Positions 4,271 through 60,149 of a DNA stretch of 64,000 nucleotides are shown here, in pieces; position 1 is the first letter of the stretch, and each line of letters opens with the position of its first letter. The DNA comes from Camelus ferus. Lineage: Eukaryota. The stretch covers positions 17,982,001 through 18,046,000 of the forward strand of contig NC_045696.1 of assembly GCF_009834535.1 (NCBI RefSeq). The letters run 5' to 3'. Both the position numbers and the translations under genes were made by a program. Under the pieces are notes generated by a model. That model saw nothing but the letters and a program-made list of their open reading frames with translations. It searched no databases and was not told where the DNA came from.

Positions 4271-7149
4271 ATACACATCAGTGTGTCTGTACATCCTTTC
4301 AAGTCAGTGATGAAGCCAGAATATGTTATATGAGAGGCTGCCCGGACACTCTGGTCTGAGGCCAACAGTAAAGTGAGTTCTTGGATTTTTTTTAATCTAT
4401 AGAGTCAACTTTTAAATAATGCCAACTAGCAAGAAATGTGATGTCAACAAAAAATATATACTTAAGATTTTATGATTTATGACCTGATTTGGCTTGACCA
4501 GAGTTCATGGAAGAAGTAGAGGTGTATTACTCCTAAGTTGTTCCCAAATATAAAAGTTTGGTTTCATATATATACATATATATATACAATACATAATTTA
4601 AAAATACCTTTATTTTTAAAATTTAGCTATTCACTCACATTTTCTTAATTATTGCCCTTGGGGTAATCTTATAGTGCAACCTACCACATAGCCATTTTAG
4701 ATGAGAGGTTTGAATTTATTACATCTTTTTTTCTTTTTTTAAATCACTGATGATGACTGATATAGAACAGTCTGCTTTTTCACTAGCTTTGTGTTATTTT
4801 ACTCTAACAGGAGCTTGTTTTATGTTGCTTTTTAAATTAAAAAAAATAAACCTACTTTTATATTTTATTTCCCACGTCCATAATATTTGATGGTAGTGTA
4901 TTATTTTAATATTCTACTGGATTATTTCGAATTTAATTTTGTAGTTAGGTGAGACTGCTTTCTGGTTTCATTTACAAAATTATACCATTCTCATAAAAAA
5001 GCAGGCTATCCTGGCCTGCTTTTCTACTGTCTATATTCAAAAAGAGTTTTTAGAAGATAAGCATTTGATAATTTAGTAAAAATTTTTTTTCATTGTATTT
5101 CAGATAATTCTCATTTTAACCTTAAAATATATTAGAATAAATTTATTGATAATATAATCCTGATTTTTTTCCCAATTTTCTTCTTTTCTCTCGTGTATTA
5201 ATATTTTTAATTGCTTTACTCTTCCAGCTTGAAAATGTTTATACTTTATTCCTCCAAAAATCTCTAAAATTATTCCACCATTTTATTGGTCTTTTCTCTT
5301 TCATGAATTTCTGCCTTTAACTTTATGATTTGTGTCTCTTATCTCTTGTCCAGAAGAACTAATTTACCTAGATGATTCTCATGTTCTTCAAAAAAAATCT
5401 TTAATGCATTTATTGATTAGCTTTCTTTCACTTCTTGCTTGTTATTTGATAAGTTTCTTTAAAAATTCAATTTACTTCCTAATTATGACTATGTATCCAT
5501 CCCATATGTTTTGTTATGTATTTCTTCTGTTAGTTTTCTTTTTATTTATGGAGACAGTAGTAGAAAGGTTTTCCTGTCAACAGTTCACTTTGAGGATGGT
5601 ATCCAGGTATAAAATAAGGCCCCACTTAAAGGGACTACCTTACTGTATGCATTTTATAAACTATATGATTGGAAAAGCATTAGGTCCCTCTGCTGCAGTG
5701 ATAAGAGTTGTACTCCAAGCCTCAGGGTTGCAATAAAATGTAGCAGGAACTTAGTTTCCAGCCCACTTCTACCTAATTAGTATTCACAGCTGGGAAAGAA
5801 CCAGCCGCTTCCATGCCCACACAGCTGAATGAATTCCAGCCGTGGAAGTCACCTGCTAAAGCACTACTCCATAGCTGATTTCCATAGAGCTCAGTAGAAA
5901 GCCAGTTCCCTTTCTGGGATAAGTTATCTCTTAAATGCCATAAATATTTCATAATTCCAGAACGACTGCTCTTTAACTTACCAGTTAATACCAAGAGAGT
6001 TATTTGATTTCCAAATGTTGGTAATTGTATTGTTTCATATGTTACAGGAAAATAAAATAGGATAAGTGAGATTGGAAATGTCAGTGGGTTTTCACTTTTT
6101 TCCTCATATCCTCTGTTAACTAAAAAGTTAGATACCCTTGTCAATCTTTTCTTGTATTAGCTTTAAAATGCTGAAGTATGTAGATACAGATATAATATAG
6201 ATATATTTTCATACCTATATTGTGGCTGTGTTATCACAGTTTTAGATTAACTCCACTGCGTCACTATCACTTTAAAGAGAAGCTAATTTTTTTGTGCCTT
6301 GAACATTATTACTGAGATATAATTGTCAGTTAACTTTCATATGGTTAATAAAATGCATAGGAAGTAAAGAAAAATGGGTAATTCTTCTGAAGAGGAGATA
6401 TCTATTGAGAAAGAATGCCAATTTAACTCAAGACAATTTTGTTTTCAGAGAGACATACTGAAATGTTAGGTTTATTTTTCAGAATAGGAGGAACAGTTTC
6501 TCAATTTTAGAATTTAAAGGATTTGCTTATCTCTGGTCAAATGATAAATGCTGAATGCTGCTAGCTGACTGAATCAAAACCAGGGGGTTTGATCTAATCA
6601 ATTATATGTTACTAAATTAAAAATGTTAACATTTGAATCATACATGTTAAAATGAGAGGATTGTGGTCAATTATTCTGATCAATAATTATGATCTATAAA
6701 AGTTCTGTGTTGTGTATAAAGAAATATTCTTGATATAAATATATGATTTTATTGCAGCAAACCATAGGATGTATTTCACAGTAAATAAAAGAAAAATTAT
6801 GTTCAATATTTGTAACAGTACTGCATGATCTTGAATTCTTCTCTAAGCATGCATATAAATTATAGATAACTATTACAGTAAATGATTTTATCTTTTGTAA
6901 TTAAGTAGCAGATAATAAAGACATCAGACATTTCCTCACAGTATTACAAAATGTTATTTTTGTTAGCAACGGTTTGCCATATCCACCATAAACAAGTCAA
7001 AACGATCATATACCATGATGACTCATTGTTTTTAAATCTAAGTGACATAAATTCCCCATTAGAGCAAACTCTGAACCATTAATATTTTATTAACTTACAG
7101 GCCTGTATCTGGATATTAGAAATGATAAAAAAAATTCAGAAGGATCCAC

Positions 7150-24124: not shown

Positions 24125-27100
24125 TGAACTTCAACAATGCCTCAAGCCTCACTCCGCCATGCTCTAGACACCAGTGTCTCTCAGAGGGGAGCTCTTATAC
24201 ATGCCCGGTGTCCCAGTTTTTACATCAAGTGCCCTGGATATTGTGGCTGACAGCCAGGGGATACCTTTTGATCTCCTGGCTCTGATGGCTGGGGACGGGG
24301 GGTTCCATTCTGGGCTCTATGGGACTAAAAGGACCAGAAAGACAGTTCTTGGCAGGCCACCACCCCCAGAGAATTATACAGACAGCAGACTGAAGTACAC
24401 CCACAGCCCTTCTGTGAAAGAGACCTACTTGCTTGTCCTGGAGCTCTGGCCTTAAGAGCAGGCCTCAGGTTTGGCACCCATAGAGAGGCCATGGAGTTTC
24501 CTTCTGGGAATGCAGTCCAGGGGAGGCTATCTTTACACTTTGCCTCTACCTCACTACAGCTCATTTGTCATTTCTTCCAGAAAGGAGCTTATATACTTAT
24601 CTGGAGCTCTTATTTTTATGAGTGCCAACTAGGGGATACCTCCAGACTGCCTGGCTCTTGGGGTTTACACTTGTGGTCCCCTGTATATATTTGCATTATT
24701 AAAAGCTACTGCCTGAGGGTCTGGCTTCCAAGCACCCTGAATCTAGGTGCTAAATGAGACCCTCCTCGTTGGGACACTGAATGGTCTTGACATACCTTCA
24801 GTTACTCAGAGCTATTAAAAATAAAATAGACTGGTCGGACAATTACAAAGATTTGAGCTACAACCAAGAAGGGCAAGGTTGAATGATAAGTTTTATCTCC
24901 TACACAAAGTCAACCCTTAAGGCTGGAGAGGTGGCTATTTAATGCATAGAAACAAAATCAGAGGGTCAAGAAAAATACGAGGAATATGTTCCAAACAAAA
25001 GAACAAGCTAATACCTCAGGAAAAAAAAAAAAACTTAATGAAATGGAGATAAGTAACTTACTTGATAAAGCGTTCACAGTAATGGTCATAATTATGCTTA
25101 CCAAATGCGGTATAAGAATGGATAAACACAGTGAAACCTTCAAAAACAGACAGAAAAATAAAGTATCAAACAGAAGTCACAGAGCTGAAGAATACAATAA
25201 TTCAACTAAAAAATACACTAGTAAGGTTCAACAGCAGAACAGTTGAAGCAAAGAAAGAATCAGTAAACTCAAATATAGGCAAGAGAAACTCACCCAATCA
25301 TAACAGCAAAAAGGAAAAAAGAAAGGATGAAAAAAGTGATGACAGTTTAAGAAAATAATGGGACAACATTCAGCAGACTAATTCTCATTAAAGGAGTCCC
25401 AGAAGGATAAGAGAGAGAGGTGGGCAGAAAATGTATTTGAAGAAGTAATGGCTGAAAACTTCCCAAACCTGGAGAAAGAAACAGATCTACAGATCCAGGA
25501 AGCCCAGAGAGTTCCAAGTAAGATGAGCCCAAAGTGTTCACACCGAGACACATCATAAATAAGCTATCAAAAGTTAAAAAAAAAAAAAAAGAAAGAAGTT
25601 TAAAAGCAGTAAAATAAAAACAATTTGTTACATACAAGGAACCCCCAATAAGACTATCAGAAGAATTTTCAGCAGAAACTTTGCAAGCAAAAACAGAGTG
25701 ACATGATATATTCTAAGTGCTGAGAGGAAAAACTTCCAACCAAGAATACTCTCCCTGGCAAAGTTACCATTCAGAATTGAAGGAGAGATAGAGTTTTCTA
25801 AACAAGGAAAAGCTAATGGAGTTCATCACAACTGAAACAGCCTTAAGAAATGTTAAAGGGACTTCTATAGCTTTTAAAAAAAAATGGCACTAATTAGTAA
25901 CAAGAAAACACCTGTAAGAACAAATCTCACTGACAAAGTTAATTATATAGTAAATATAGTAGATTAATCACTTATAAAGCTAGTATGAAGATTAAAGACA
26001 AAAGTAGCAAATTTAACTGTAACTATAATAATTAGTTAAGGGATGCACAGGATAAAATATGTAAAATGTAACAATAAATCATAAAATGAGGGGAGAAAAA
26101 TTAATAGCTTTAGAATACATTCAAACTTTGTTCAAATTCAAAGTTGGCTATCAACTTAAAATAGACTGTTATAAATTCTTATACCTATAAGACTCATAGT
26201 AACCACAAAACAAAAACCTATAGTAGATAAATAAAAGTTAATAAGAAAGGAATCTAAGCATACTATTAAAGAAAGTAATCAAACCATCAAAAAAGATAAT
26301 AAGAGAAGAAGAAACAGAGGAACTTAAAAAAAAGAAGAAGAAAGAAACCAGTCATAAAACAAGTAATAAAATGGTAAAGTACATCCCTATCAATAATGAC
26401 TCTAAATATGAATGGACTAAATTCTCCAACTAAAATACAAAGAGGGCAGAATTAATTTTAAAAAAGGCATATCTATATACTGCTTAAATAATACTCACTC
26501 CAGACGTGAGAATATGTACAGAGTAAAAACGAAGTGATGAAAAAAGATATTCCATGAAGATAAAGGAAAGCTGGGATAACTATGCTTATATGTGACAAAT
26601 AGACTTTAATTCAGACTGCAATCAGAGACAAAGAAAGGTATTGCATAATGATAAAAAGATCAACCTAAAAAAAGAATGTAAGATTTGTAAATATATATGC
26701 ACTCAAAAGAGAATATCTAAATATATAAAGCAAATATTAACAGACCTAAAGGGAGAAATTAACAGTCATACAGTGATAGTAGGGGACTTAAACAGCCCAC
26801 ATCAATCAATGGATAGATCATTGAGACAGAAAATCAATAAGACAACAGTAGTATTAAATGACATGTTAGACCAGATTGACAACAAATATATACAGAGCAT
26901 TTCATCAAAAAATGAAAAAAATACATATTCATCTCAAGTGTACAAGAACATTCTTCAGGACACATTTTATGTTAGGCCATAAAGCAAATCTTAATAAATT
27001 TAAGAAGACTGAAATCATCAATCATATTTTCTGACCACAATCGTATGAAACTAGAAATCACTTACAAGAACAAGAACGAAAAATGCACAAAAATGTGAGA

Positions 27101-28365
27101 ATTGAACAATATGCTACTGAATAACCAGTGGGTCAATTTTGATATCAAAATAAAAATTAACAAAATAACTTGATATTAAAGAAAATGTAAATACAATATA
27201 CAAAAACTTATGAGATGCAGCAAGAGAAGTTCTAAAAGGAAAGTTCGTAGCAATAAATGCCTACTTTAAGAAACAAGAAAAGTTTCAAGTCATGTAACTC
27301 TACACCTCAAGGACCTAGGGAAAAAAAAAGCCCAAAGTTAGTAGAATAGAAGAAATAACAAAGTTCAGACCAGAAGTAAATGAAATAGATACTAAAAAGA
27401 TAATAGAAAAGACTAATCAAACTAAAAGCCAGTTTGCTGAAAAGATAAACAAAATTCACAAACCTTAGGTAGACTCCGTAAGAAAAATATAGAGAGGACT
27501 CTAATAAACAAAGTCAGAAATGAAAGAGAAGATATTACAACTGATACCACAGAAATACAGTGAATCATGTGACTACTATGAACAAATTGAACAATTTAGA
27601 TGAAATGGATAAATTCCTAGAAACATAAATTTTTCTAAAATAAAACAGAAAATCTGAGACCAATTAGTAGTAAGATTTAATCATTAATAAAAAAATTCCC
27701 AACAAACAAAAGTCCAGGACTAGACAACTTCAGTGGTAAATTTTACCAGACATTCAAGGAAATGTTACCAATCCTCAAACTCTTTCAGAACATGGAAGAG
27801 GGGAAACACATATTCATTTTACAAGGCCAGTATTCCCCTGATACCAAAACCAGACAAGGACATTACAAGAAAGAAAAGATAATTTCAGACCAATATCCCT
27901 GATGAACATAGATACAAAAATCCTCAACCAAATATCAGCAAACCAAATTCAACAATGCATTAGAAAGATCACGTACCATGATCAAGTGGGATTTATTCCA
28001 GGATGCAAGGATGATTCAACTTCTGCGTATCAATCAATGCTAACACACCACATTATCAGAATGAAGAATAAAAATCATATCGTCATCTCAATAGATGCAG
28101 AAAAAGCATTTGACAAAGTTCAACATCTGTTTATAATAAAAACTCTATTTAACATGTGGGTGGAGAGGGAAAGTACCTCTACATTCTGTGGGTATCACAA
28201 ACCCACAGCTAAGGTCATACTCAATGGTAAAAAGCTTAAAGCATTTCTTCTAAGATCAGGAAAAAGAAAAAGGTGTCCATTATTGCCACTTTAATTCAAC
28301 ACAGTATACTGGAAGTCGTAGGCCAGAGCAATTAGGCAAGAAAAGAAATAAAAGGCATCCAAAGA
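24125..28365 (+). mobile_element. Degenerate L1: 5' UTR, ORF1 and ORF2 up to the RT domain
   Basis: ORF1 remnants ~24940-25870 (MFQTKEQ...EMLKGLL*). ORF2 from ~26371: endonuclease (IVGDLNSP) and RT ([34 protein letters not shown]). Many stops and frameshifts. Confidence 0.93.
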
Positions 28366-28371
28366 GAAATG

Positions 28372-28770
28372 GAAACCTTGGATGGACCTAGAATTTATCA
28401 CACTAAGTGAAATAAGTCAGACAGGGACAGAAAAATACTGCACATTATCACTTACATGTGGAATCTAAAAAACAAAACAAATAAATCAATATAACAAAAA
28501 GAGATACAGACTCATGAATACAGAGAACAAATTAGAGACTGTCAGAGGGGAAGAGACTGAAGGGGATGGTGAAAGAGAGGAAAGGAAGTATGAGCTACAA
28601 ACTGTCAGTTTTAAAAGAAGTAAGTTACAGGAATGTAATGTACAGCACACAGGGCAAACAGTCAGTAATACTGTGAGAACTTTGAGTCGTGCGTAATGTT
28701 TAAAAAACCAAATCATTATGTTGTTCACCTGAAACCAACATAATATTGTGGTTCAACTCTACCAAAAAAA
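28372..28770 (+). mobile_element. 5'-truncated L1 3' end (L1MA/artiodactyl-type) at the deletion junction of the older L1
   Basis: ORF2 end (TGGATGGACCTAGA...CTAAGTGAAATAAGTCAGACAG), typical 3' UTR and an A-tail. Confidence 0.8.
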
Positions 28771-28784
28771 CTTTTGAGTTAAAA

Positions 28785-29950
28785 AAGATAATGTCATGTG
28801 TGTATACAGAAAGTTAACTATTGTCCCTTCCCATCCCCCTCCCCCTTGGCAACCACAAGTTTGTATTCTGTATCTATGAGTCTGTTTCTGTTTTGTATTT
28901 ATGTTTCAAAATGTAGAATAGATAAACAAGATTATACTGTTCAGCATAGGGAAATATATACAAGATCTTGTGGTAGCTCACAGCAAGAAAAAAAATGTGA
29001 CAATGAATATATGTATGTTCATGTATAACTGAAAAACTGTGCTCTACACTGGAATTTGACACAACATTGTAAAATGACTATAACTTAATAAAAAAAAAGT
29101 AAAAAAATTTTTTTAAAAATGGACAGAGGAAAAGGACCTGAATAGACATGTTCCCAAGGAGGACATACAGAAGGCCACAGACATATGAAAGGATTCTCAA
29201 CATCACTAATCATCAGGGAAATGCAAATCAAAACCACAAAGAGATACTACTTCACAGCTGTCAGAATGGCTATTATCAAAAGGACAACAAAAAGCAAGCA
29301 TTGGTGACAATGTGGAGAAAAGGAAACCCTTGTGTATGGCTGGTGGGACTATAAATTGGTGCAGCCACTATGGAAAACAGTATGGAGATTCCACAAAAAA
29401 TTAAAAATAGAACTACCATATGATCCAGCAAAAAAAAAAAAAAGAGAGAAAGTTAACTATTATTCAGACATACAAAAAGAATGAAATATTGCCGTTTGTG
29501 ACAACATGGATGGAACTTGAGGGCATGATGCTAGGGGAAACAAGTCAAACAGGGAAAGGCAAATACCATATGACCTCACTTATATGTGGAATCTGAAAGA
29601 AAAAATAAACAAACAAATTCATAGATAAGAGAATATATTACAGATTGGTGATTGTCAGAGGCAGGGTGTGGGGAGACTGAAAAATGGGTGAAGAGAGTCA
29701 AAAAGTACAAACTTCCAATTTTAAAATAAATAAGTCATGGGGATGTAAGGTACATGACAGTGTTTATAGTTAATAATATTGTATTGCATAGCTGAAAGCT
29801 GCTAAGAGAATAGATCTTAAAAGTTGTCATAATAAGAAAAAAATATGCAACTATGTATGGTGACAGCTGTTAATTAGACTTGTTTGGGTGATTATTTCAC
29901 AATATATATGAATATCAAATTTTCATGCTGTACACCTGAAACTGATACAA
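28785..29950 (+). mobile_element. Older L1 ORF2 end and 3' UTR (L1MA/MB-like), interrupted by the 28808-29461 insertion
   Basis: Removing the insertion restores ...GTATACAGAAAGTTAACTATTATTCAGACATACAAAAAGAATGAAATATTGCCGTTTGTGACAACATGGATG, close to the L1 consensus. The 3' UTR continues to GCTGTACACCTGAAAC. Confidence 0.8.
28808..29461 (+). mobile_element. Young lineage-specific L1 insertion with 5' inversion and 3' transduction
   Basis: TSD AGAAAGTTAACTATT at 28808-28822 and 29447-29461. Inverted 3'UTR piece 28823-28905, sense 3'UTR 28906-29107, extra 320 bp at 29108-29429 and a second poly(A) at 29430-29443. Confidence 0.88.
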
Positions 29951-31875: not shown

Positions 31876-32126
31876 CCGTATTTCAAAGAAGAAATTTGAA
31901 CGGCAATTGAGAAAATAAAATACAGAGGAAAAACACCTAAATACAATAAGAAGTATAAAATATTTTTCTCTCATTTTATTTCAAATTTTCTAAGAAGAAC
32001 ACTGAGCTATATAAAATATTACAAAATACAATAAAATTAAGTTTATGCAGTTGAACTAATAGGAATATGCTAATGTCATTCTTAAAGTATCAGGTTGTAA
32101 CTTTGATTTAAAAAAGCAAAAACTGT

Positions 32127-32585
32127 CATGGAAACAACCTAAATGTCCATTGACAGATGACTGGATAAAGAAGCTGTGGTACATTTATATGATGGAATAC
32201 TACTCAGTGATAAAAAAAGAATAAAATAATGCCATTTGCAGCAACATGGATGGACCTGGATATCATCATTCTAAGTGAAGTAAGCCAGAAAGAGAAAGAA
32301 AAATACCATATGATATCACTCATATGTGGAATCTAAAAAAGAGAAGAAAAAGGAGGAAACTAATGAACTCATCTACAAAACAGAAACAGACCTGCAGACA
32401 TAGTAAACAATTTTATGGTTACTGGGGGAAAGAGGGTAGGAAGGGATAGATTTGGGAGTTTGAGATTTGCAAAGGTTAACCACTATACCTAAAAATAAAA
32501 AATGAATTTCTTATGTATAGTACAGGGAACTATATTCAACATCTTGTAATAACCTTTAACAAAAAAGAATATGAAAATGAATCCA
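32127..32585 (+). mobile_element. L1 3' fragment (ORF2 end plus 3' UTR), a distinct lineage subfamily
   Basis: CATGGAAACAACCTAAATGTCCATTGACAGATGACTGGATAAAGAAG...GCAGCAACATGGATGGACCTGG; G-rich tract near 32425. Confidence 0.9.
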
Positions 32586-33949
32586 CCTATTTCTGAAGAC
32601 TCAGGATCAATCCATACATACCTCCACAGCACTAAATCAAATAAATGTGAACAGTAAAAGTATCAAACAGTTATAATTCTAGTATATTTAATTTATCTTA
32701 TTATAAGGTCATAAAAACAAATAGCTGCATTCTATATTTCACTAACATACTATAAATTGTATTATTTATTTTCTGTCTTCCCCAACAAAAAAATTTGTAT
32801 CTCTCTTGCTTGGTAGACAGTAAACTTGTAGACAAACATTAAATATTTGTTTGAACAAATGAATGTTAAGATACATTATAAAAACAACAAGTAGGATAGT
32901 TAAGTGTTTGGATTACTTGTAGGTAACATAAAGAATTGCACTAGAAAGCGGAAAAGGATAGTCAATATGCATTAGTTAAGATTCTGCTTAAATGGGAGTG
33001 ACAAAAGGAATAAAATAAGTTTGGTGGAATAGAATTTTTACATAATTTACTTTAAAAAATCAGACAGTGGTGGCACGTTGCTGCAAAGTATAAAAAATGC
33101 AAGGTCCTTCTTTGTCAGTGCTCCTTGATACCTTGTTTCTGTTACCAAGGTCAACTCATCGTTCAAAATTGCTCCTCCAGTTTCAGCAGTCAAGTGATAT
33201 CTCAGCCAACACAAAGGAGGTAACAGAAGAGATTATCCCCTCTTTGAAGGAGATCGGAAAATCATACGAAGTAAGTATTTTAGGAAACACGATCACTTTC
33301 ACTCATGAGTTAACTAGTAAATGGACACTTAAGAGCCAGTTTTATTTTGAAAAACTTGATTTTAGAGTTATCTATATTTAACACCAAGAGTAGAGAAAAT
33401 TATCAGTTTCCAATTGTTTCAAAGCTTTTAGTTGAAAAAGACTGCATTTCATTTAGCTTTATTTTACTCATAGAACACAGTGCCTTGTATTCTAAAGATA
33501 CACAGAAACACACACATGCATATATGATAAATGGATAAAAACATATTTTCAAGCAAAAAATTGACTAAACCAGAGAACAGTATATATCATACTCATTACA
33601 TGTAAAATAAACTACAGAGCATATAAAAGACCCCCAATGCCTGTATCACTCACCAGAAACCCAAAAATATCAGGGCTGGGACAAAAACTCTAATTACAAA
33701 ATCTCTATTATTCCCACCAATAAAAAATAAAATGTAACTGTTGGTGAATATTTTAAATAGTAGAAAATTTCTTGACACTGAGAAGTGCTGAGAGACATAT
33801 TGTTTATCTGACATGAGACAAAAATTTTCCTGATTAGTAAAATGGCTGAATCACCACATTTATTAAATATGATTTTATTATTCTTTTATTGTGACTGGGC
33901 TACACAAGAAAAAACTATTCTTCATAAAATATATTAAAACACTATACCA

Positions 33950-36569: not shown

Positions 36570-37501
36570 CTAAACAAGCAATTCTCTCAGGAATAAATAC
36601 AAATGATCAACAGGCACATGAAAAAATTCTCAGTATCACTAATTATCAGAGAAATGCAAACCAAAACTACGATGAGGTATCACTTCACACCAGTCAGAAT
36701 GGCCATCATTCAAAAGTCCACAAATGACAAATGCTGGAGAGGCTGTGGAGAAAAGGGAACCCTCCTGCACTGCTGCTGGAATGCAATTTGGTGCAGCCAC
36801 TGTGGAAAGCAGTATGGAGATTCCTCAAAGAACTAGGAATAGACTTACCATGTGACCCAGGAATCCTGCTCCCGGGCATATATCCAGAAGGAACCCTACT
36901 TCAGAGAGCCACCTGCACCCCAATGTTCATAGCAGCACTATTTGTAATAGCCAAGACATGGAAACAGCCTAAAAGTCCATCAACAGATGAGTGGATAAAG
37001 AAGAGGTGGTATATTTATACAATGGAATACTATTCAGCCATAAAAACGACAACATAATGCCATTTGCAGCAACATGGATGTCCCTGGAGAATGTCATTCT
37101 AAGTGAAGTTAGCTAGAAAGAGAAAGAAAAATACCATATGAGATTGCTCATATGTGGAATCTAAAAAAAAAAAAAAAAAAGAACATAAATACAAAACAGA
37201 AACAGACTCATACATATAGAATATAAACTTGTGGTTGCCAAGGGGGCGGGGGGTGGGAAGAGACAGACTGGGATTTCAAAATTTGTAGATACTGACAGGC
37301 ATATGCAGAATAGATAAACAAGATTATACCATATAGCACAGGAAAATATATACAAGATCTTGTGGTAGCTCACAGTGAAAAAAAATGTGACAATGAATAT
37401 ATGTATGTTCATGTATAACTGAAAAATTGTGCTCTACACTGGAATTTGACACTATATTGTAAAATGACTATAACTCAATAAAAAATGTTAAAAAAAAAAA
37501 A
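36570..37501 (+). mobile_element. Young 5'-truncated L1 (ORF2 C-terminus plus 3' UTR plus poly(A))
   Basis: Peptides [27 protein letters not shown] and CTPMFIAALFVIAKTWKQPK. The 3'UTR is nearly the same as at 28823-29107. AATAAA at 37477. Confidence 0.95.
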
Positions 37502-38328: not shown

Positions 38329-38450
38329 GGTGGTGAGGGTAATAGCTCAGTGGTAGAGCCCATGCTTAGCATGCATGAGGTCCTGGGTTCAATCCCCAGT
38401 ATCTCCATCAAAAAAGTTAAATGAAAAAATTAAAGAAATTTTTAAAAGAC
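38329..38450 (+). mobile_element. tRNA-Ala(AGC)-derived SINE (camelid Vic-1-like)
   Basis: A-box TAGCTCAGTGG (38343-38353), anticodon loop TTAGCAT, B-box GGTTCAATCC (38386-38395) and an A-rich tail. Imperfect TSD TAAAAATACAGCTAT (38314-38328) / TAAAACTACAGTTAT (38451-38465). Confidence 0.88.
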
Positions 38451-53300: not shown

Positions 53301-53906
53301 TACATCACATTAACCAATGCTAACATATCACTCAATGAATCTGAAAGCTTTCATTATAACGGGTACATTTTATAAATATATTTTTTCTGTTATTTCTCTT
53401 AATTATTTCTATATGCCAGTTCACTAATCTATCATAACTAAATATACTAAAATATAGAGATAGTGTTCACTCAGTTTGTGCTTTCTGTGTGTGTGAATTA
53501 AAAGTTTTGATTGGTTAATCTATAAATAATTGCACACAGAGAGAATTTTATGTTATCTATACAAATCCTATTTTTCATACTATTTCAAACCCAATCAATC
53601 ATTTGAGAAAAATAGGATTCCATTAAGAAATGGCTTTCTGCAGAGCAACTGCAAAGCAAATTACACAAAAGAAGACAGTTTCCCTCCTCCTGAAATTCAA
53701 ATTTCTGACATAGAGCACACAGTCCTCCGCGCATTAAATAATCCACGCGGTCCATCCTCCTGCAGCTTTGGCTTCCACTCAGCTTGGAGCTAGATTTTGC
53801 TTTTCTGCTCCCATTTCAATACCTTAGTGATGATGGGAAATGAAGTCAGAAAGGGAACAAAGGGCTTGATGTTACTCTACGTAAGTATTTCAGAAGATCT
53901 ACTCCT

Positions 53907-54184
53907 GCCACCCCTCTCCCTCCCTCTCTGGAGACAGCCCACACTCTGTCTATGGACTGTGTACCTACTTTTAATCTGAGCTCCCAACCCCCACACCTCA
54001 TGGCCTTTCTCTTGCCTTTCAATGTATCTCTCTGGATAAATCTACCTTCACTCAACTGTGGCTCGCTCTTGAATTATTTCCTGCGCGAAGCCAAGGATCT
54101 ACGCTTGGCGGGGCACGTCCCAGGGGCTCAACCGAAGCCTGGGACACGGCCCTCCTCATGCCCCATATCTGTTTTCCTGCATCA
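53907..54184 (+). repeat. 5' truncated LTR (R + U5 only)
   Basis: 53907-54051 aligns without gaps to the 3' R (17 mismatches in 145). The following sequence ends in ...GCATCA at 54184, complementary to the TGA... LTR start at 58815, and the PBS follows. Confidence 0.88.
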
Positions 54185-54190
54185 TATCTC

Positions 54191-54210
54191 TGTCACCCAA
54201 TGTGTGGGGC
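54191..54210 (+). promoter_or_regulatory. Degenerate primer-binding site, tRNA-Lys(CUU) type
   Basis: TGTCACCCAATGTGTGGGGC versus canonical TGGCGCCCAACGTGGGGC: two CpG-type transitions, one G>T change and a 2-nt insertion. It lies 6 nt after the U5 end. Confidence 0.7.
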
Positions 54211-55214
54211 ATTTACATAAAGAAACAGGGCTCAAAGGGCATAATTGCGATCCGCCTATTGGGCTACAGCTCCCCCCTCTTCGGAGGGTGGCAGGGGGTT
54301 TCTCCTGTGCCGTGCAGATTCAAGTAGCCCTTAGGTGGCAGCTGACATGGCCTGCAGGATCTGGTAGAGACCAGTTCTCTAGCGGTGAAGGAGCCCACCG
54401 AGCCCAAGGCTTCTCTCCCCTTGATCTTTTCTCATTCCCTCCTTTATCGTTCTATCTCTTTGGACTTGAGAAGATCCACTAAGGCAACCACTCGGACATC
54501 CAAATTAAGACCACGTGGCAAGTAATTGGCAACTTGATTGGGTGAGCTTCCCCTCCATGGCTCTTTGAGCCCAATTCCACCTCTCTGCACGGAGCTGTTC
54601 TGGTTCCGGGATGCCAGAACTGTGAAAGGGGGCCCAAATTAGGGGACTCCGGGAGTTCCCCTTTAAAAATTTGTGGCCCAACCCTTCCCGAGTGCCCTTG
54701 GGGCATATGGCCTCACTGCATCCATAGGCGAAGGTGAGAGTCGCGGGCGGGCACTCCCTTTGCAGATTGTGGGTTTTGCACTCCTGAACGAGAATTACCA
54801 GCGAGTGCTCTGTCACAGGTTTGCAGGTTTTAGCACCCCTCGTTGGGGTCACAGGTTTAAGCACCCCTGAGTGAGAGTTGCTGGCGAGTGCTCTCCACAA
54901 GTCGCAGGTTACAGTGCCCCTGGGTGGGAGCCGCAGGCGGACGCTCCCTCAGTGGGCCTACGGATCTCTGGTCTGGGAAGCATGGAGGCTATAGCATTCC
55001 TTTTTCATTCTAGATTTCCACCTTTCAATGCTATTTGTTTCTCTTTCACAAAACGTAATTTGCTTAGTTGACTCAGGACCCGGGTCTCCTCCTTCCATCT
55101 AAAGGATTTAGACTCTGGGACTCTAGTCACCTCTTCTCCCTCTGGCCCTTGCTCCTTTCCTTAACTAGTCTAAAGGAGCCACCTCAGGCTCACAGATAGG
55201 ACATCCTACCCAGA

Positions 55215-56748
55215 ATGGGAACAACTACAAGTATCCCAAAGGACTCCCCGCTAGGATGCATATTAGTAAATTGGAAAAAGTTTAAAAAGAATAGTTTGAA
55301 GAAAAAGGAATTAATTTTCTTTTGTAATACTGTATGGCCCCAATACAAACTAAGGGACCAAGAATTCTGGACAAAGAATGAGTCACTAACTTACAATGCC
55401 ATCTTGCAGCTAGGCCTATTTTGTAAAAGAGGCTGTAAATGGGGGGAAATCCCATATGTCCAGATGTTCCTGACCCTATACCAAAACTCAGGTCTAAGGA
55501 ACTCCTGCCGGATATTCCTGGCCCGCCTCCCCTCTAAGCATCTCCTCCCCAGGAGCTTGATACTCTAGATGACCCCCTTACTGAGTCCAGCTCCCTAAGG
55601 TCCACAGCCAGAAGTTCCTATTTCCCCCAACTCTGAGGGGGAACAGTCTTCCCCATCATCTCCCTCACCAGAGGAAAGTCCTCCAAGTACTATTCCAAGT
55701 GGGGCCAACTACCAACCTCCTATTACCAAACTCTGCCCCTTAAGGGAAGTGCCAGCTGGTGATGGAGGAACAGTCAGAGTTCACGTCCCCTTTTCTATGA
55801 ATGATTTGGCTACCTGCAAGGAGAAATTTGGACATTTCTCTGAGGACCCCAGAAGGTTCATGGAGGAATTTGCCAGGCTGACAATGGCCTATGAGCTCAC
55901 CTGGAGGGACCTTTCAACCTGCTGCACTTTCAAGGAAAAAAGCCGGATCCTCAGCGCAGCGCAGCCAGGGCATATGCTGATGAACTGGCTGCCCGCAACC
56001 AGGGGCACACAGTCTCCCTTACTGGGGGGATGCAATCCCTGACCAAGACCCCCACTGGAACCACCACCAGGGAGGTAGAGGGCTTGAATGCAGAAACCAT
56101 ATGGTTACTTGCCTCACAGAGGGGATGAAAAAATGTGTTGTTAAGCCCATCAACTATGACAAAGTCAGGGAAGTAACACAGGGAAAAGATGAGAATCCAG
56201 CCCTCTTCCAGGGTCGCTTAGTGGAGGCCTTTAAAAAGTACACTAATATTAACCCCAAAATCCCTGCGGGGGAAGCCCTGGTAAACACCCACTTATCACT
56301 CAGTCAGCCCCAGACATCAGGAGACAATTACAGAAGGCAGCTCTGGGACCCCAGACCCCGTGAATCAGCTCGTGGATCTGGCATTTGGAGTATTCAACAA
56401 TAGAGACAGGGTTGAAGAGGTAAGAAGGATCCAGGGAAAACAGCAAAAGGCAAAATTCCTAGTGTCTTCCCTAACCCTTGCACCACCTCAGGGTTACCCT
56501 CCTTCAAGAAGACCCACGGTGAGGACAGGATCCAGGATGCCTGGATCAGAGCCACTGTCTTGCCAAAAAGGGACCTGTTTTAAGTACAGCCAGGAGGGCC
56601 ACTGGAAGAACAAATGCCCCATGTATGGGGAAAGTCCACCAGGACCCTGCCCTATATGCAAACAAAAAGGCCACTGGAAGCAGGACTGCCCTCAGTCCCA
56701 AAAGGGGCTTGGGCTCCCAAACCAATGATGGCTGAAATAACTGAAGAC
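55215..56748 (+). pseudogene. gag: ERV gag (MA-CA-NC), frameshifted
   Basis: MGTTTSIPKDSPLGCILVNW...LIFFCNTVWPQY (HERV-W/9/H-like matrix with Gly2); RVHVPFSMNDL (capsid start); VTQGKDENPALFQGRLVEAFKKYT (MHR); zinc knuckles CFKYSQEGHWKNKC (degenerate) and CPICKQKGHWKQDC. Split over several ORFs. Confidence 0.93.
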
Positions 56749-57080
56749 CGACGGGGCCCGGGACCCTCCCTGGCTCCCACAGGACACCTGGTCATTTCTC
56801 TGGAGGAGCCTTAGGTAACCCTTGACATGGCAGGTAGAAAAGTTGTCTTCTTACGAGATACAGGAGCCACCTACTCTGTGCTGACTGATTTCCCTGGACC
56901 CTTGTCCTCCCAATCCTGTGTAGTAATGGGGATTGACAGAAAGCCCCAAACCAAGCGATTTACAGCCCCCCTTAGCTGCCTGCTAGAAAATTTTACCTTT
57001 GCACATCAGTTTTTGCTTATGCCTGAGTGCCCCATCCCCCTTTTGGGAAGGGATTTACTCACTAAATTCCAGGCAAAAAT
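56749..57080 (+). pseudogene. pro: ERV aspartic protease
   Basis: FLRDTGATYSVL active site (DTG at 56857-56865) and CPIPLLGRDLLTK motif; in-frame TAG at 56812-56814. Confidence 0.92.
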
Positions 57081-58354
57081 TCTAAAATTCCTAGAAGCAG
57101 TCCAGCTTCCAAAAGAGGCTGCAGTCATACACTGCAGGGGTCACCAAAAGGGCAATTCCTCCCTTATACAGGGGGACGCCCTCGCAGAGAAGGCTGTGGA
57201 AGCTGCAGCCAGAGAACACACAGTCTTATAAGCTGCAGTTCTCCCACCTGAGGACCAGCCTCTCCCAACGGTGCCGTCCTATACACCTGAAGTGGTCGAA
57301 TGGGCTAAACACAGGGGGCTGGAAAAGAATCTCTCGGTGGCTGACAAGCTCCTCATTCCTGGGGACAAACAGTGGAAAATAACTAAGCATCTCCACGAGT
57401 CCACCCACCTAGGGTGGCACTGCATGCTCAGACTAATCTCTCAAGTGTTCCCAGGCAAGGAACTGTCCCAAACTGTTAAGGAAGTCACTGGGGCCTGTGA
57501 ACTTTGTGCCCGCAATGACCCAGGGAGTCACCCTGTACCCCGACCCCTACTCCGGCCCACACAACATCGGGGAACGTATCCAGGGGAAGATTGGCAAATG
57601 GGCTTTACCCAGACGCCCTCTTGTAAGAGATGGAAATACCTGTTGGTACACATAGACACCTTTACAGGGTGGGTAGAAGATTTCCCCACTAGAACAGAAA
57701 AAGCAATAGAAGTGTTAAATTTTCTGCTGAAAGAAATAATCCCAAGATTTGGGCTACCAAAAAGCTTACAGAGTGATAATGGACCCTCCCTTCACTGCCA
57801 AGGTGACTCAACAGGTTTCCTCTGCTCTGGGTATTAACTATCACCTTCACTCTTCCTGGAGGCTCCAATCCTCAGGCAAGGTGGAAAAAGCAAATCATGT
57901 TCTAAAGAGAACTCTTGCTAAGCTATGTCAGAAGACTTCAGAAACCTGGGTCCCCTTCCTGCCTATAGCCCTTCTAAGAGTAAGGATGGCCCCTAAGGGA
58001 ATTTTAAAACTTAGCCCATTTGAAATGATTTATGGGAGGCCCTTTTTAACTTCAGATTTCCTGTTTGATGAGGAAATTCATAGATTAGTTTCCCACATTG
58101 TTGGCTTAAGTCAAGTTCAAAAGGTTCTCCAAGAATATGGAAATAAAGTGTTGCCCTTTCCTACAGAGGAAAAGGTTGAAGTCCCTGTCCAATCAGGGGA
58201 CTTTGTCTTACTAAAAACTTGGAAGGAGGGGTCCCCTGAAGACCAGCTGCAGCCAAAATGGAAGGGATTATATCAGGTACTACTGAGCACCGCAACTGTC
58301 GTTAGGCTACGAGGAATTGCTAGTTGGCTACATCTGTCCATAAAAAACCTGTAA
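57081..58354 (+). pseudogene. pol: ERV pol remnant: C-terminal RNase H plus integrase; reverse transcriptase absent
   Basis: RNase H end LEAVQLPKEAAVIHCRGHQKG. Integrase HLHESTH...CELC zinc finger, PGEDWQMGFT, IDTFTGWVE, LQSDNGP, SSGKVEKAN and KWKGLYQVLL (GPY/F-like). Stop at 57229-57231 and a frameshift near 57790. Confidence 0.92.
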
Positions 58355-58439
58355 CTTATAAGCCCCAACAGGAGCCCAGAGAGACCTATGCTTACGAGGC
58401 AATAGAATACCTCAGGTAGCTGTTTAAGAAAAACAAATA

Positions 58440-58800
58440 ATAACGTGTAGCGGTGGTTACAAATGTTTAACCGTGCCTTTTAAATCTTTTTGTTGTTACA
58501 GACTGTCAAACTGTTGTTATGAAGGTGCTTCATCTTTAAGAAAATTCATCAGAAGTCAATGGAAACAGTGGGTTACAGCAGCCCCACATCAGATGCTGGC
58601 TGTGCGAGGATTCCAGCCCACACCCTCAGCCCTTGGACGCCAAAAACAAAAGGCTGTCCTGCCTCTGGGACCTCTAGATTAGGCACTGAGAGATTTTTAC
58701 TTCCTGATAGGCAGGGTCAACGCCCCTACTCAGCCTGGAAGCAGTTTCAGAAGAGGGACCTTCGTCCCTCTGAAACTCCATAAGATTATGGGAGTAAAAT
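58440..58800 (+). pseudogene. Probable env cytoplasmic-tail / 3' UTR remnant (env almost wholly deleted)
   Basis: Only ~450 bp separate the IN end from the PPT. The peptide QMLAVRGFQPTP...LGPLD resembles class I env tails. No SU, furin site or CX6CC motif is seen. Confidence 0.45.
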
Positions 58801-58804
58801 CTCT

Positions 58805-58814
58805 GAGGGGGGAA
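58805..58814 (+). other. Polypurine tract
   Basis: GAGGGGGGAA immediately before the TGAGAC LTR start. Confidence 0.85.
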
Positions 58815-59293
58815 TGAGACAGGGCACAGCCACTCAAGGAAGGCCATAGCAATTAACATCAAAATGGTGAAAGATTCAACCCCTAGAAGGCCTCGAGGCT
58901 CAGGATGATGAGAGATTTAACTTCTAGTAGATCTTGAGCTTTCATTACAAGCCCACTGTAATATATTAACATTGTGAATAACATGACCACAGGCACCGTG
59001 GCAGTCCCAAGGCTAGCCACAAAAGGTCAAAGGGTGGGAAATGGCCAACTTCCTGGGAATCCCAGCCCCTTCCCCTTAGACTGGTCCTTCTACTTATTAG
59101 CATATGAAGCCACCAAACCCATAAAAACCAGCAACACGGCACCTCACGGCCGCCCCCCTCTCTCCCTCTTTGGAGGCAGCCTACATTCTGTCTATGGAGT
59201 GTGTACCTACTTTTAATCTGAGTACCCAACCCCCACACCTCGTGGCCTTTCTCTTGTATTTCAATATCTCTGTCTGAATAAATCTACCTTCAC
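58815..59293 (+). repeat. 3' truncated LTR (U3 + R only)
   Basis: Starts TG after the PPT. TATA-like CATAAAA at 59120-59126 lies ~25 nt before the R start (59149). AATAAA at 59277-59282 is followed by a CA end and poly(A). Confidence 0.9.
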
Positions 59294-60149
59294 AAAAAAA
59301 AAAGAAAAAAAAAGATCTACTCCTGGCTTCTGTGTTCTGCCAGATCCAGGAGGAAACAGTGAGATCACTTAGGAAGTTCCTGCAATAAAAGGGACTCAGT
59401 GTGATAAAGGTGACTCTAGAGTCATAGCTGAGGAGATGGAGAGATCTGGTCGCACTCTGCACGTGATAAACTTCCACACACACGCGTCTTGCTGTGCTGT
59501 ACTTGTTCCTAGACTCGCAGGACTGTACTCCCTCCAAACCCCTCTCTCGTGATCTAATCCTCGAAAAATTTCAGGCATTCAAAGAAATGAATAAGACATT
59601 CTTTCAACTGTATACTTCTTTGGCTCTTGCAACCTAAATTTTGCTGACACAGGGAATATAAATGTCTTGCCTGTTGGTTCAGGCAGAAGGGGTGGTCAAC
59701 CCTAGAAAGACCAAAACATATATCAGTATCTCAGAAAATTTTCCTTTATATATATATATATTTTTTTTTTCTGGAAACATATTTATTTCTATCCCTGCAT
59801 TAAATATATTAGGTGGTGCAAGATGAGAATAAGTTTTAGATAAGACTTAGTTTTAGATGAAACTAAGCTGCTGAGTGGATTGTGTGCATCCCAAGGAGGT
59901 TTTTCCTTATAACAAACTCCATTGGGATGCAAGAGGAACATAATTCATTAATGTGCATATCTATAAGAAATATGTGCAAATGCACATGTGTACCAACATG
60001 AAGATTTGCTTATATAGATACTGAAAAACTAAATTGAAATTAAGCTTTATCATGTTTATAATATGGAATATTTATTATATCTTTCAAACATATTTTACAG
60101 ATATTAGGTGTCCCATTTTGTAAGCCAGGTACTCTGGAGATGACTTTTC

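Follow-up and report, generated by a model that had tools for sequence, protein, structure and literature searches.

An RNA-derived copy of a class I endogenous retrovirus with the protease end joined in frame to the RNase H tail

The window, by which we mean the whole 64,000-nt stretch of DNA that was analyzed, contains a 5.4-kb element that is an L1-type processed copy of a genome-length viral RNA. Its open reading frame (ORF) at 56815-57231 (+ strand) was confirmed as the protease end of a class I (gamma-like) endogenous retrovirus (ERV) joined in frame to the tail of RNase H, with no reverse transcriptase (RT) between them. We consider this loss most likely to have come about by a microhomology deletion of an ordinary kind, and on balance we favor the view that the deletion arose in a defective source provirus from which the copy inherited it.

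The fused frame is open for 138 codons (138 aa), reads ...PLLGRDLLTKFQAKILKFLEAVQLPKEAAVIHCRGHQKG... in the ORF translation, and is divided as follows:

56815..57069, + strand: protease side of the fused frame (RVP match, 6.4e-11; P0100 alignment)
57070..57075, + strand: probable junction at the Gln86-Ala87 codons, with ~1.9 kb missing (position-by-position comparison with relatives)
57076..57228, + strand: C-terminal third of RNase H plus linker, followed by the stop codon at 57229-57231 (translation, P0100 alignment, and RNase H structure matches)

The Pfam RVP match covers residues 2-89 of the ORF. Among solved structures, the ORF from 57070 onward resembles the RNase H domain of XMRV at residues 110-155 (3p1g, 3.2e-9) and an RT p80 chain of MLV type at residues 626-671. 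With the full-length Gag-Pol P0100 as reference, ORF residues 1-89 align with residues 515-603 and ORF residues 89-133 with residues 1224-1268, and 620 residues are absent (RT, connection, and most of RNase H; ~1.9 kb). The P0100 landmarks VQDLR (718), LPQG (794), YVDD (826), LFVDGS (1127), QQAEL (1166), and TDSKY (1189) all lie inside this gap. We compared the spacing from the protease end to the RNase H tail across 44 loci, 31 of which had both ends; it was 1,893 to 1,911 nt in 29 of the 31, 1,832 nt in one, 800 nt in one, and 0 in none. Both motifs were found in 16 of 267 relative proteins, 619 to 677 residues apart in 14 and 170 and 190 residues apart in two, versus 30 here, and in the 270-protein set none of the 16 motif-pair proteins had them fewer than 100 residues apart. 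The spacing in these other loci and proteins thus indicates that ~1.9 kb is missing from the element, in frame.

The original prediction, that RT had been removed in frame and the protease fused to the RNase H tail, is borne out by the P0100 alignment and the locus spacings alike. Its statement that the element lacks LPQG and YxDD also held, as both motifs are absent from 53900-59320 in all six frames. It had described the entire RT as gone, which is correct, and the loss in fact reaches further: the RNase H remnant is only the C-terminal third (the last ~50 residues), about two thirds of the domain having been lost together with the first three of the four catalytic motifs. The fused frame also ends before the integrase.

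Other internal parts of the element could be identified around this frame, those with no other support given being read from the sequence:

54191..54210, + strand: decayed primer binding site (PBS)-like stretch
54730..54741, + strand: splice-donor-like site in the ~1-kb leader, GT at 54734, unspliced (sole match in the leader)
55215..56728, + strand: gag, with MA, CA, and two zinc knuckles, the first degraded (tblastn of P0100/P0101; Gag_p30, 5.2e-12; zf-CCHC, 7.8e-6)
57232..58443, + strand: integrase, frameshifted near 57785-57792 (rve, 2.3e-11; Integrase_H2C2, 3.6e-9; MLVIN_C, 7.5e-10; 3' end placed at ~58443)
58444..58804, + strand: env remnant, ~360 nt between integrase and polypurine tract (length from sequence)

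The assignment to class I rests on Gag p30, retroviral protease, and MLV-type integrase C-terminus matches in Pfam, all above curated cut-offs, and on the matches of the RNase H part to MLV/XMRV RNase H chains. We assume the PBS-like stretch, which is decayed, to be tRNA-Lys-like; the type expected of the ERV-W group would be a PBS for tRNA-Trp or tRNA-Arg. For the donor-like site in the leader, we estimate that ~0.3 matches would be expected by chance. Just after it, at 54734-54946, the leader carries short imperfect direct repeats of 17 to 41 nt in two or three copies. The gag region is disrupted by stops and frameshifts, and tblastn pieces of P0100/P0101 fall in several of its frames. The env remnant, which had no matches in Pfam or Atlas, presumably represents the TM cytoplasmic tail only, and an Rfam search of the leader and the 3' end gave nothing near gathering score.

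Within the env remnant, ~45 nt in another frame at 58471-58560 separate a motif, which we take to resemble the start of an env TM tail, from its apparent continuation. The same stretch can also be read as a branch point, a pyrimidine tract, an AG at 58500-58501, and an ATG at 58519. The TM tail may have received an insertion here, or the stretch may be the env acceptor and start; Rfam and Pfam searches of the stretch were blank.

A functional fusion protein was considered and rejected. Evidence against selection on the fusion comes from the stops and frameshifts in gag and integrase and from the stop that directly follows the RNase H tail.

The two ends of the element show how the copy was made. 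Their features, again read from the sequence unless stated, are as follows:

53894..53907, + strand: 5' target-site duplication, 14 bp (identical to the 3' copy)
53907..54051, + strand: 5' R, with no U3 upstream (128/145 identical to 59149-59293)
54052..54184, + strand: U5, ending in CA and absent at the 3' end (repeat ends at 54051/59293; U5 end placed from the CA and the PBS-like stretch after it)
58805..58814, + strand: polypurine tract (PPT), then TG
58815..59148, + strand: U3, 334 nt, with the TATA-like CATAAAAA at 59120-59127
59149..59293, + strand: 3' R, with AATAAA at 59277-59282 and no U5 after it
59294..59313, + strand: poly(A) tail, 20 nt with one G, its last two A's overlapping the target-site duplication
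59312..59325, + strand: 3' target-site duplication

The order is thus R-U5 ... U3-R and poly(A) between 14-bp target-site duplications that are identical at 14 of 14 positions. Only 145 nt are repeated at the two ends; the 5' end is R-U5 without U3, and the 3' end is U3-R without U5. The 5' R directly follows the 14-bp word and starts ~28 nt past the position corresponding to the TATA-like box of the 3' U3, which is the expected cap site. The insertion flank, TTTCAG|AAGATC, is only a loose match to the L1 TT/AAAA site. The R-U5/U3-R ends, the poly(A) tail, and the 14-bp duplication show that the copy is RNA derived, as had been proposed earlier. The copy, from which RT is absent, cannot supply its own. 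Its cis signals (R/U5/U3, the PBS-like stretch, and the PPT) were kept while the enzymes were lost. The Kimura two-parameter distance between the two R copies is 0.129 over 145 sites, corresponding to ~29 million years, with wide error, at 2.22e-9 substitutions per site per year (PMC9604959). This figure dates the source provirus, and the retrocopy is younger.

To place the cut, we made ungapped alignments of the proteins, using the LLGRD-like and HCxGH-like motifs as anchors, and collapsed identical rows. After removal of those in which a motif was too near an end, P0097 among them, 141 protease-side and 41 RNase H-side rows from the 270 proteins remained. Residue counts at the crossover were taken from the 20 closest rows on each side, and these relatives belong to other families (77% amino acid identity at best). 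Agreement with the protease side versus the RNase H side was 9 versus 0 for L81 and 4 versus 0 for F85; both sides agreed at Q86 (4 versus 8) and A87 (11 versus 3), and the RNase H side was matched at K88 (0 versus 4), L90 (0 versus 19), and L93 (1 versus 20). After the protease, the closest relatives read FQT, LQT, FQA, or LQA (FQA/LQA in P0127 and P0124), and before the RNase H tail they read HQAK, HQAE, or HQVK (HQA in P0096 and P0174). Because the switch falls between F85 and K88/L90, the crossover probably lies in or next to the Gln86-Ala87 codons, CAG GCA (57070-57075). P0001 and P0002, the closest relatives on the protease side, have Gln-Thr; on their reading, only the Gln codon would be shared. 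Short homology in the same frame at the crossover would account for the preserved frame at the join, and selection need not be invoked.

Two further sequence words at the junction had been singled out by the original prediction. It had noted repeated AAATTC words as possible microhomology, and the cluster is real, three of the four copies within 56839-58450 (1,612 nt) being at the junction (57064, 57077, and 57085). However, a crossover leaves one copy, and here the copies flank the join and all survive, so we rejected AAATTC as the crossover, which the relatives place at Q86-A87; the words may have helped in pairing. It had also likened a CCAG|G to an exon-exon join. The CCAG|G is present (57069-57073), but a canonical GT there is disfavored by the relatives, and GC-AG or shifted cuts are the forms that a splice could still take. 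A splice at CCAG|G itself is therefore a disfavored reading of these alignments.

The account that we favor would run as follows. An earlier class I ERV provirus would have lost ~1.9 kb of pol in a jump between two short look-alike stretches, one being the Gln-Ala codons at the end of the protease region and the other the Gln-Ala codons that precede the last third of RNase H. A template switch by retroviral RT or microhomology repair would be the likely cause. As both stretches would be in frame, the join would be too, without selection. The env of this provirus would also have been reduced to a remnant, while its long terminal repeats, PBS, and PPT would have been retained. The second step is shown by the ends of the element: L1 reverse transcribed a genome-length polyadenylated RNA of the source, unspliced at the leader donor-like site, and inserted the product at this locus. 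The retrocopy then decayed, and its fused frame has no function. Besides the L1 hallmarks and the position of the switch, we counted two features of the element in support of an inherited deletion: the presence of two large losses, in pol (~1.9 kb) and env, in one copy, and the unused leader donor-like site. Similar defects are described for HERV-W, in which 28% of sequences are reported to lack nt 4513-6184, from 318 nt into pro-pol onward, and 85% to carry an env deletion that spares the TM tail; these deletions are found in every type of sequence, proviruses included (PMC5016936). Defects common to canid and deer gammaretroviral lineages are reported to have spread by complementation (PMC6407205 and PMC8662619).

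Alternatively, the deletion could have been made at the locus in the window, by a jump during L1 reverse transcription or by microhomology repair after insertion, with pol intact in the source. We consider this possible and rather unlikely. It would leave the same microhomology signature, the 17 differences among the 145 sites of the R copies indicate time for decay, and a second copy of the junction was not found among the matches listed in contig and protein scans, which is weak evidence. Against this, it requires either an independent large loss of env or a source that had already lost env, and the pol and env deletions of HERV-W recur across sequence types, proviruses among them (PMC5016936).

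A somewhat less probable origin, and one we doubt, is splicing: a source with intact pol would have given an RNA from which a cryptic RT-spanning intron (GC-AG at CAG|GCA, or GT-AG one or two codons later) was removed, and L1 would have captured the spliced RNA. The element was copied from RNA, and there is precedent in L1 capture of HERV-K rec RNA (PMC4351823) and of HERV-W lacking the pre-gag intron (PMC6995185); it is because these captured ERV splices are real that we still give the reading some weight. We examined the splice sites by an amino acid proxy, using relatives from other families, and compared the three cuts that an AG on the RNase H side would allow. Such an AG before the cut is available there (His-Gln-Ala in P0096 and P0174; Q/E/K in 15 of 41 rows). 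A GT donor at CCAG|G would need Val after Gln, which is seen in 2 of 141 distinct protease-side relatives and in 0 of the 15 with Gln at that position. A GC donor after CAG would need Ala, as in 69 of the 141 protease-side rows. A cut one base into codon 88 would need Ser on the protease side (19/141) and Glu on the RNase H side (18/41). A cut after codon 88 would need Val89, found in 9 of 141 rows yet in all 4 of the closest protease-side relatives, where it would make a GT six bases later. This last point speaks for splicing, although the resulting exon end of AAA and intron start of GTN-CAR would be a poor donor. In the 6- to 8-nt ambiguity window, CAG|G would be present by chance at 6 to 8% and AG|G at 14 to 19% of positions in the pol of this element. 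Moreover, the leader donor-like site, which is nearer the consensus, was not used, env was gutted as well, and HERV-W has comparable pol and env deletions in all sequence types (PMC5016936). It is improbable, more so than a splice as such, that the junction reflects an alternative intron over RT and most of RNase H that yields an in-frame Gag-Pro-(RNase H tail)-integrase message in a non-primate class I ERV with many HERV-W-style L1-processed copies; if true, it would show that retroviral RNAs can lose RT by splicing and that a second lineage is readily captured by L1.

Defective ERVs without RT and env are already known, as are ERV RNAs processed by L1, and HERV-W combines the two. Our element works like a HERV-W processed pseudogene, yet it is not ERV-W. 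The likeness lies in the R-U5 and U3-R ends, poly(A), and 5- to 15-nt target-site duplications reported for HERV-W processed pseudogenes (PMC5537654) and in a recurrent ~1.67-kb pol deletion just after protease with env cut to the TM tail (PMC5016936). In contrast, the deletion in the element spans more (~1.9 kb) and reaches further into RNase H, the integrase is kept where HERV-W often loses part, and the host is probably not a primate. ERV-W membership was rejected on the second zinc knuckle, which is Cx2Cx4Hx4C rather than the ERV-W Cx2Cx3Hx4C (PMC6995185), and on the leader, which is ~1 kb (PBS-like stretch at ~54191, gag homology from 55215) versus ~2 kb in HERV-W. The HERV-W env is given as 1.6 kb (PMC5016936) versus the ~360 nt from integrase to PPT here. 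Large internal deletions with cis signals kept are likewise described for CfERV-Fc1(a) of canids and CrERV lineage B of mule deer (PMC6407205 and PMC8662619), although the common large deletions described there are in env and the copies are two-LTR proviruses. HERV-K rec loci and HERV-W copies without pre-gag resemble the element as RNA-derived copies missing an internal segment, but the ends of their missing segments are described as matching known GT...AG sites, whereas the leader donor-like site of the element is unspliced. In alpaca, ERV1 is reported to form large clusters of short, possibly non-autonomous elements, mostly without recognizable domains (PMC8605555).

The modest value of the element lies in its being a class I ERV copied by L1 from cap to poly(A) in an apparently non-primate (camelid-like) genome. 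Among human ERV groups, HERV-W is described as unique in its L1 processing in PMC5537654, which states the determinants to be unknown. If many copies of the present family were processed, they would offer an independent case for asking which properties turn an ERV RNA into a substrate for L1. The element also allows a cheap genome-scale test of splice versus deletion.

Searches for a relative spanning the junction, in protein, metagenome, viral, and genome-contig collections, which are poor in host DNA, gave none among the matches listed, and no sister copies, intact or deleted, were found among the metagenome and genome matches listed, in viral contigs, or in protein searches of these collections. 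In the protein searches, no match crossed the junction in register; P0003, P0137, and P0162 pass the protease only by weak alignment. For viral contigs, the ORF query returned one locus, a chance match, and the exact junction pattern returned none, while the junction peptide returned 12 loci, of which 10 were full-length gammaretroviral pol regions and 2 were weak matches. The metagenome scan gave at least 31 confirmed among 592 stretches listed, and the best nucleotide matches among those listed were short integrase stretches only (67 to 86%). In genome contigs, at least one was confirmed among 600 stretches listed, on the protease side only. Our literature search found no account of the element or of camelid processed ERV copies; subscription papers, supplements, and Repbase/Dfam fell outside its scope and may describe the family.

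For sequencing runs, 54100-59700 (577 words) was found in part in 20 of the 24 runs listed, from 10 studies, and by half or more in 16. The best word share was 0.70, in an RNA run, with 0.61 to 0.67 in DNA-type runs of organisms A and B; these shares are silent on junction, copy number, and expression. Among the 24 runs listed, shares of half or more came from organisms A and B plus two RNA runs. The word shares fit ~1.4% divergence or broken contigs rather than paralogs 6 to 10% apart.

Some matches were of interest in themselves. An MLV-like metagenome copy (L036:1497-2295) has 800 nt from the protease end to the RNase H tail, which is its own ~1.1-kb pol deletion. In P0126 and P0133, early RT is followed directly by the RNase H tail, which may reflect gene-model joins. 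L045, a 2,177-nt contig filed under a bacterial genome, codes for the end of a retroviral protease and is likely vertebrate contamination.

The window is AT rich, with a GC content of 27 to 39% outside the element and 51% at 54001-58000, and it contains L1 remnants. Decayed L1 pieces lie at 26596-29900, 32100-32600, and 36600-37500, with repeated 3' ends that, we presume, match camelid L1s; endonuclease- and RT-like L1 frames lie at 26596-26982 and 27842-28294. These 3' ends and the tRNA-Ala copy described below provide a lead, short of a result, toward a camelid-like host. The segment 28822-28905 is an inverted copy of 37182-37265, which suggests a 5'-inverted L1 insertion. ARAGORN identified an isolated tRNA-Ala(AGC) at 38334-38409 with an A-rich tail to 38440. 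The whole (38334-38440) is probably a simple tRNA-derived SINE, which we take to be vic-1-like. SINEBase lists vic-1 as a simple SINE of camels (PMC3531059).
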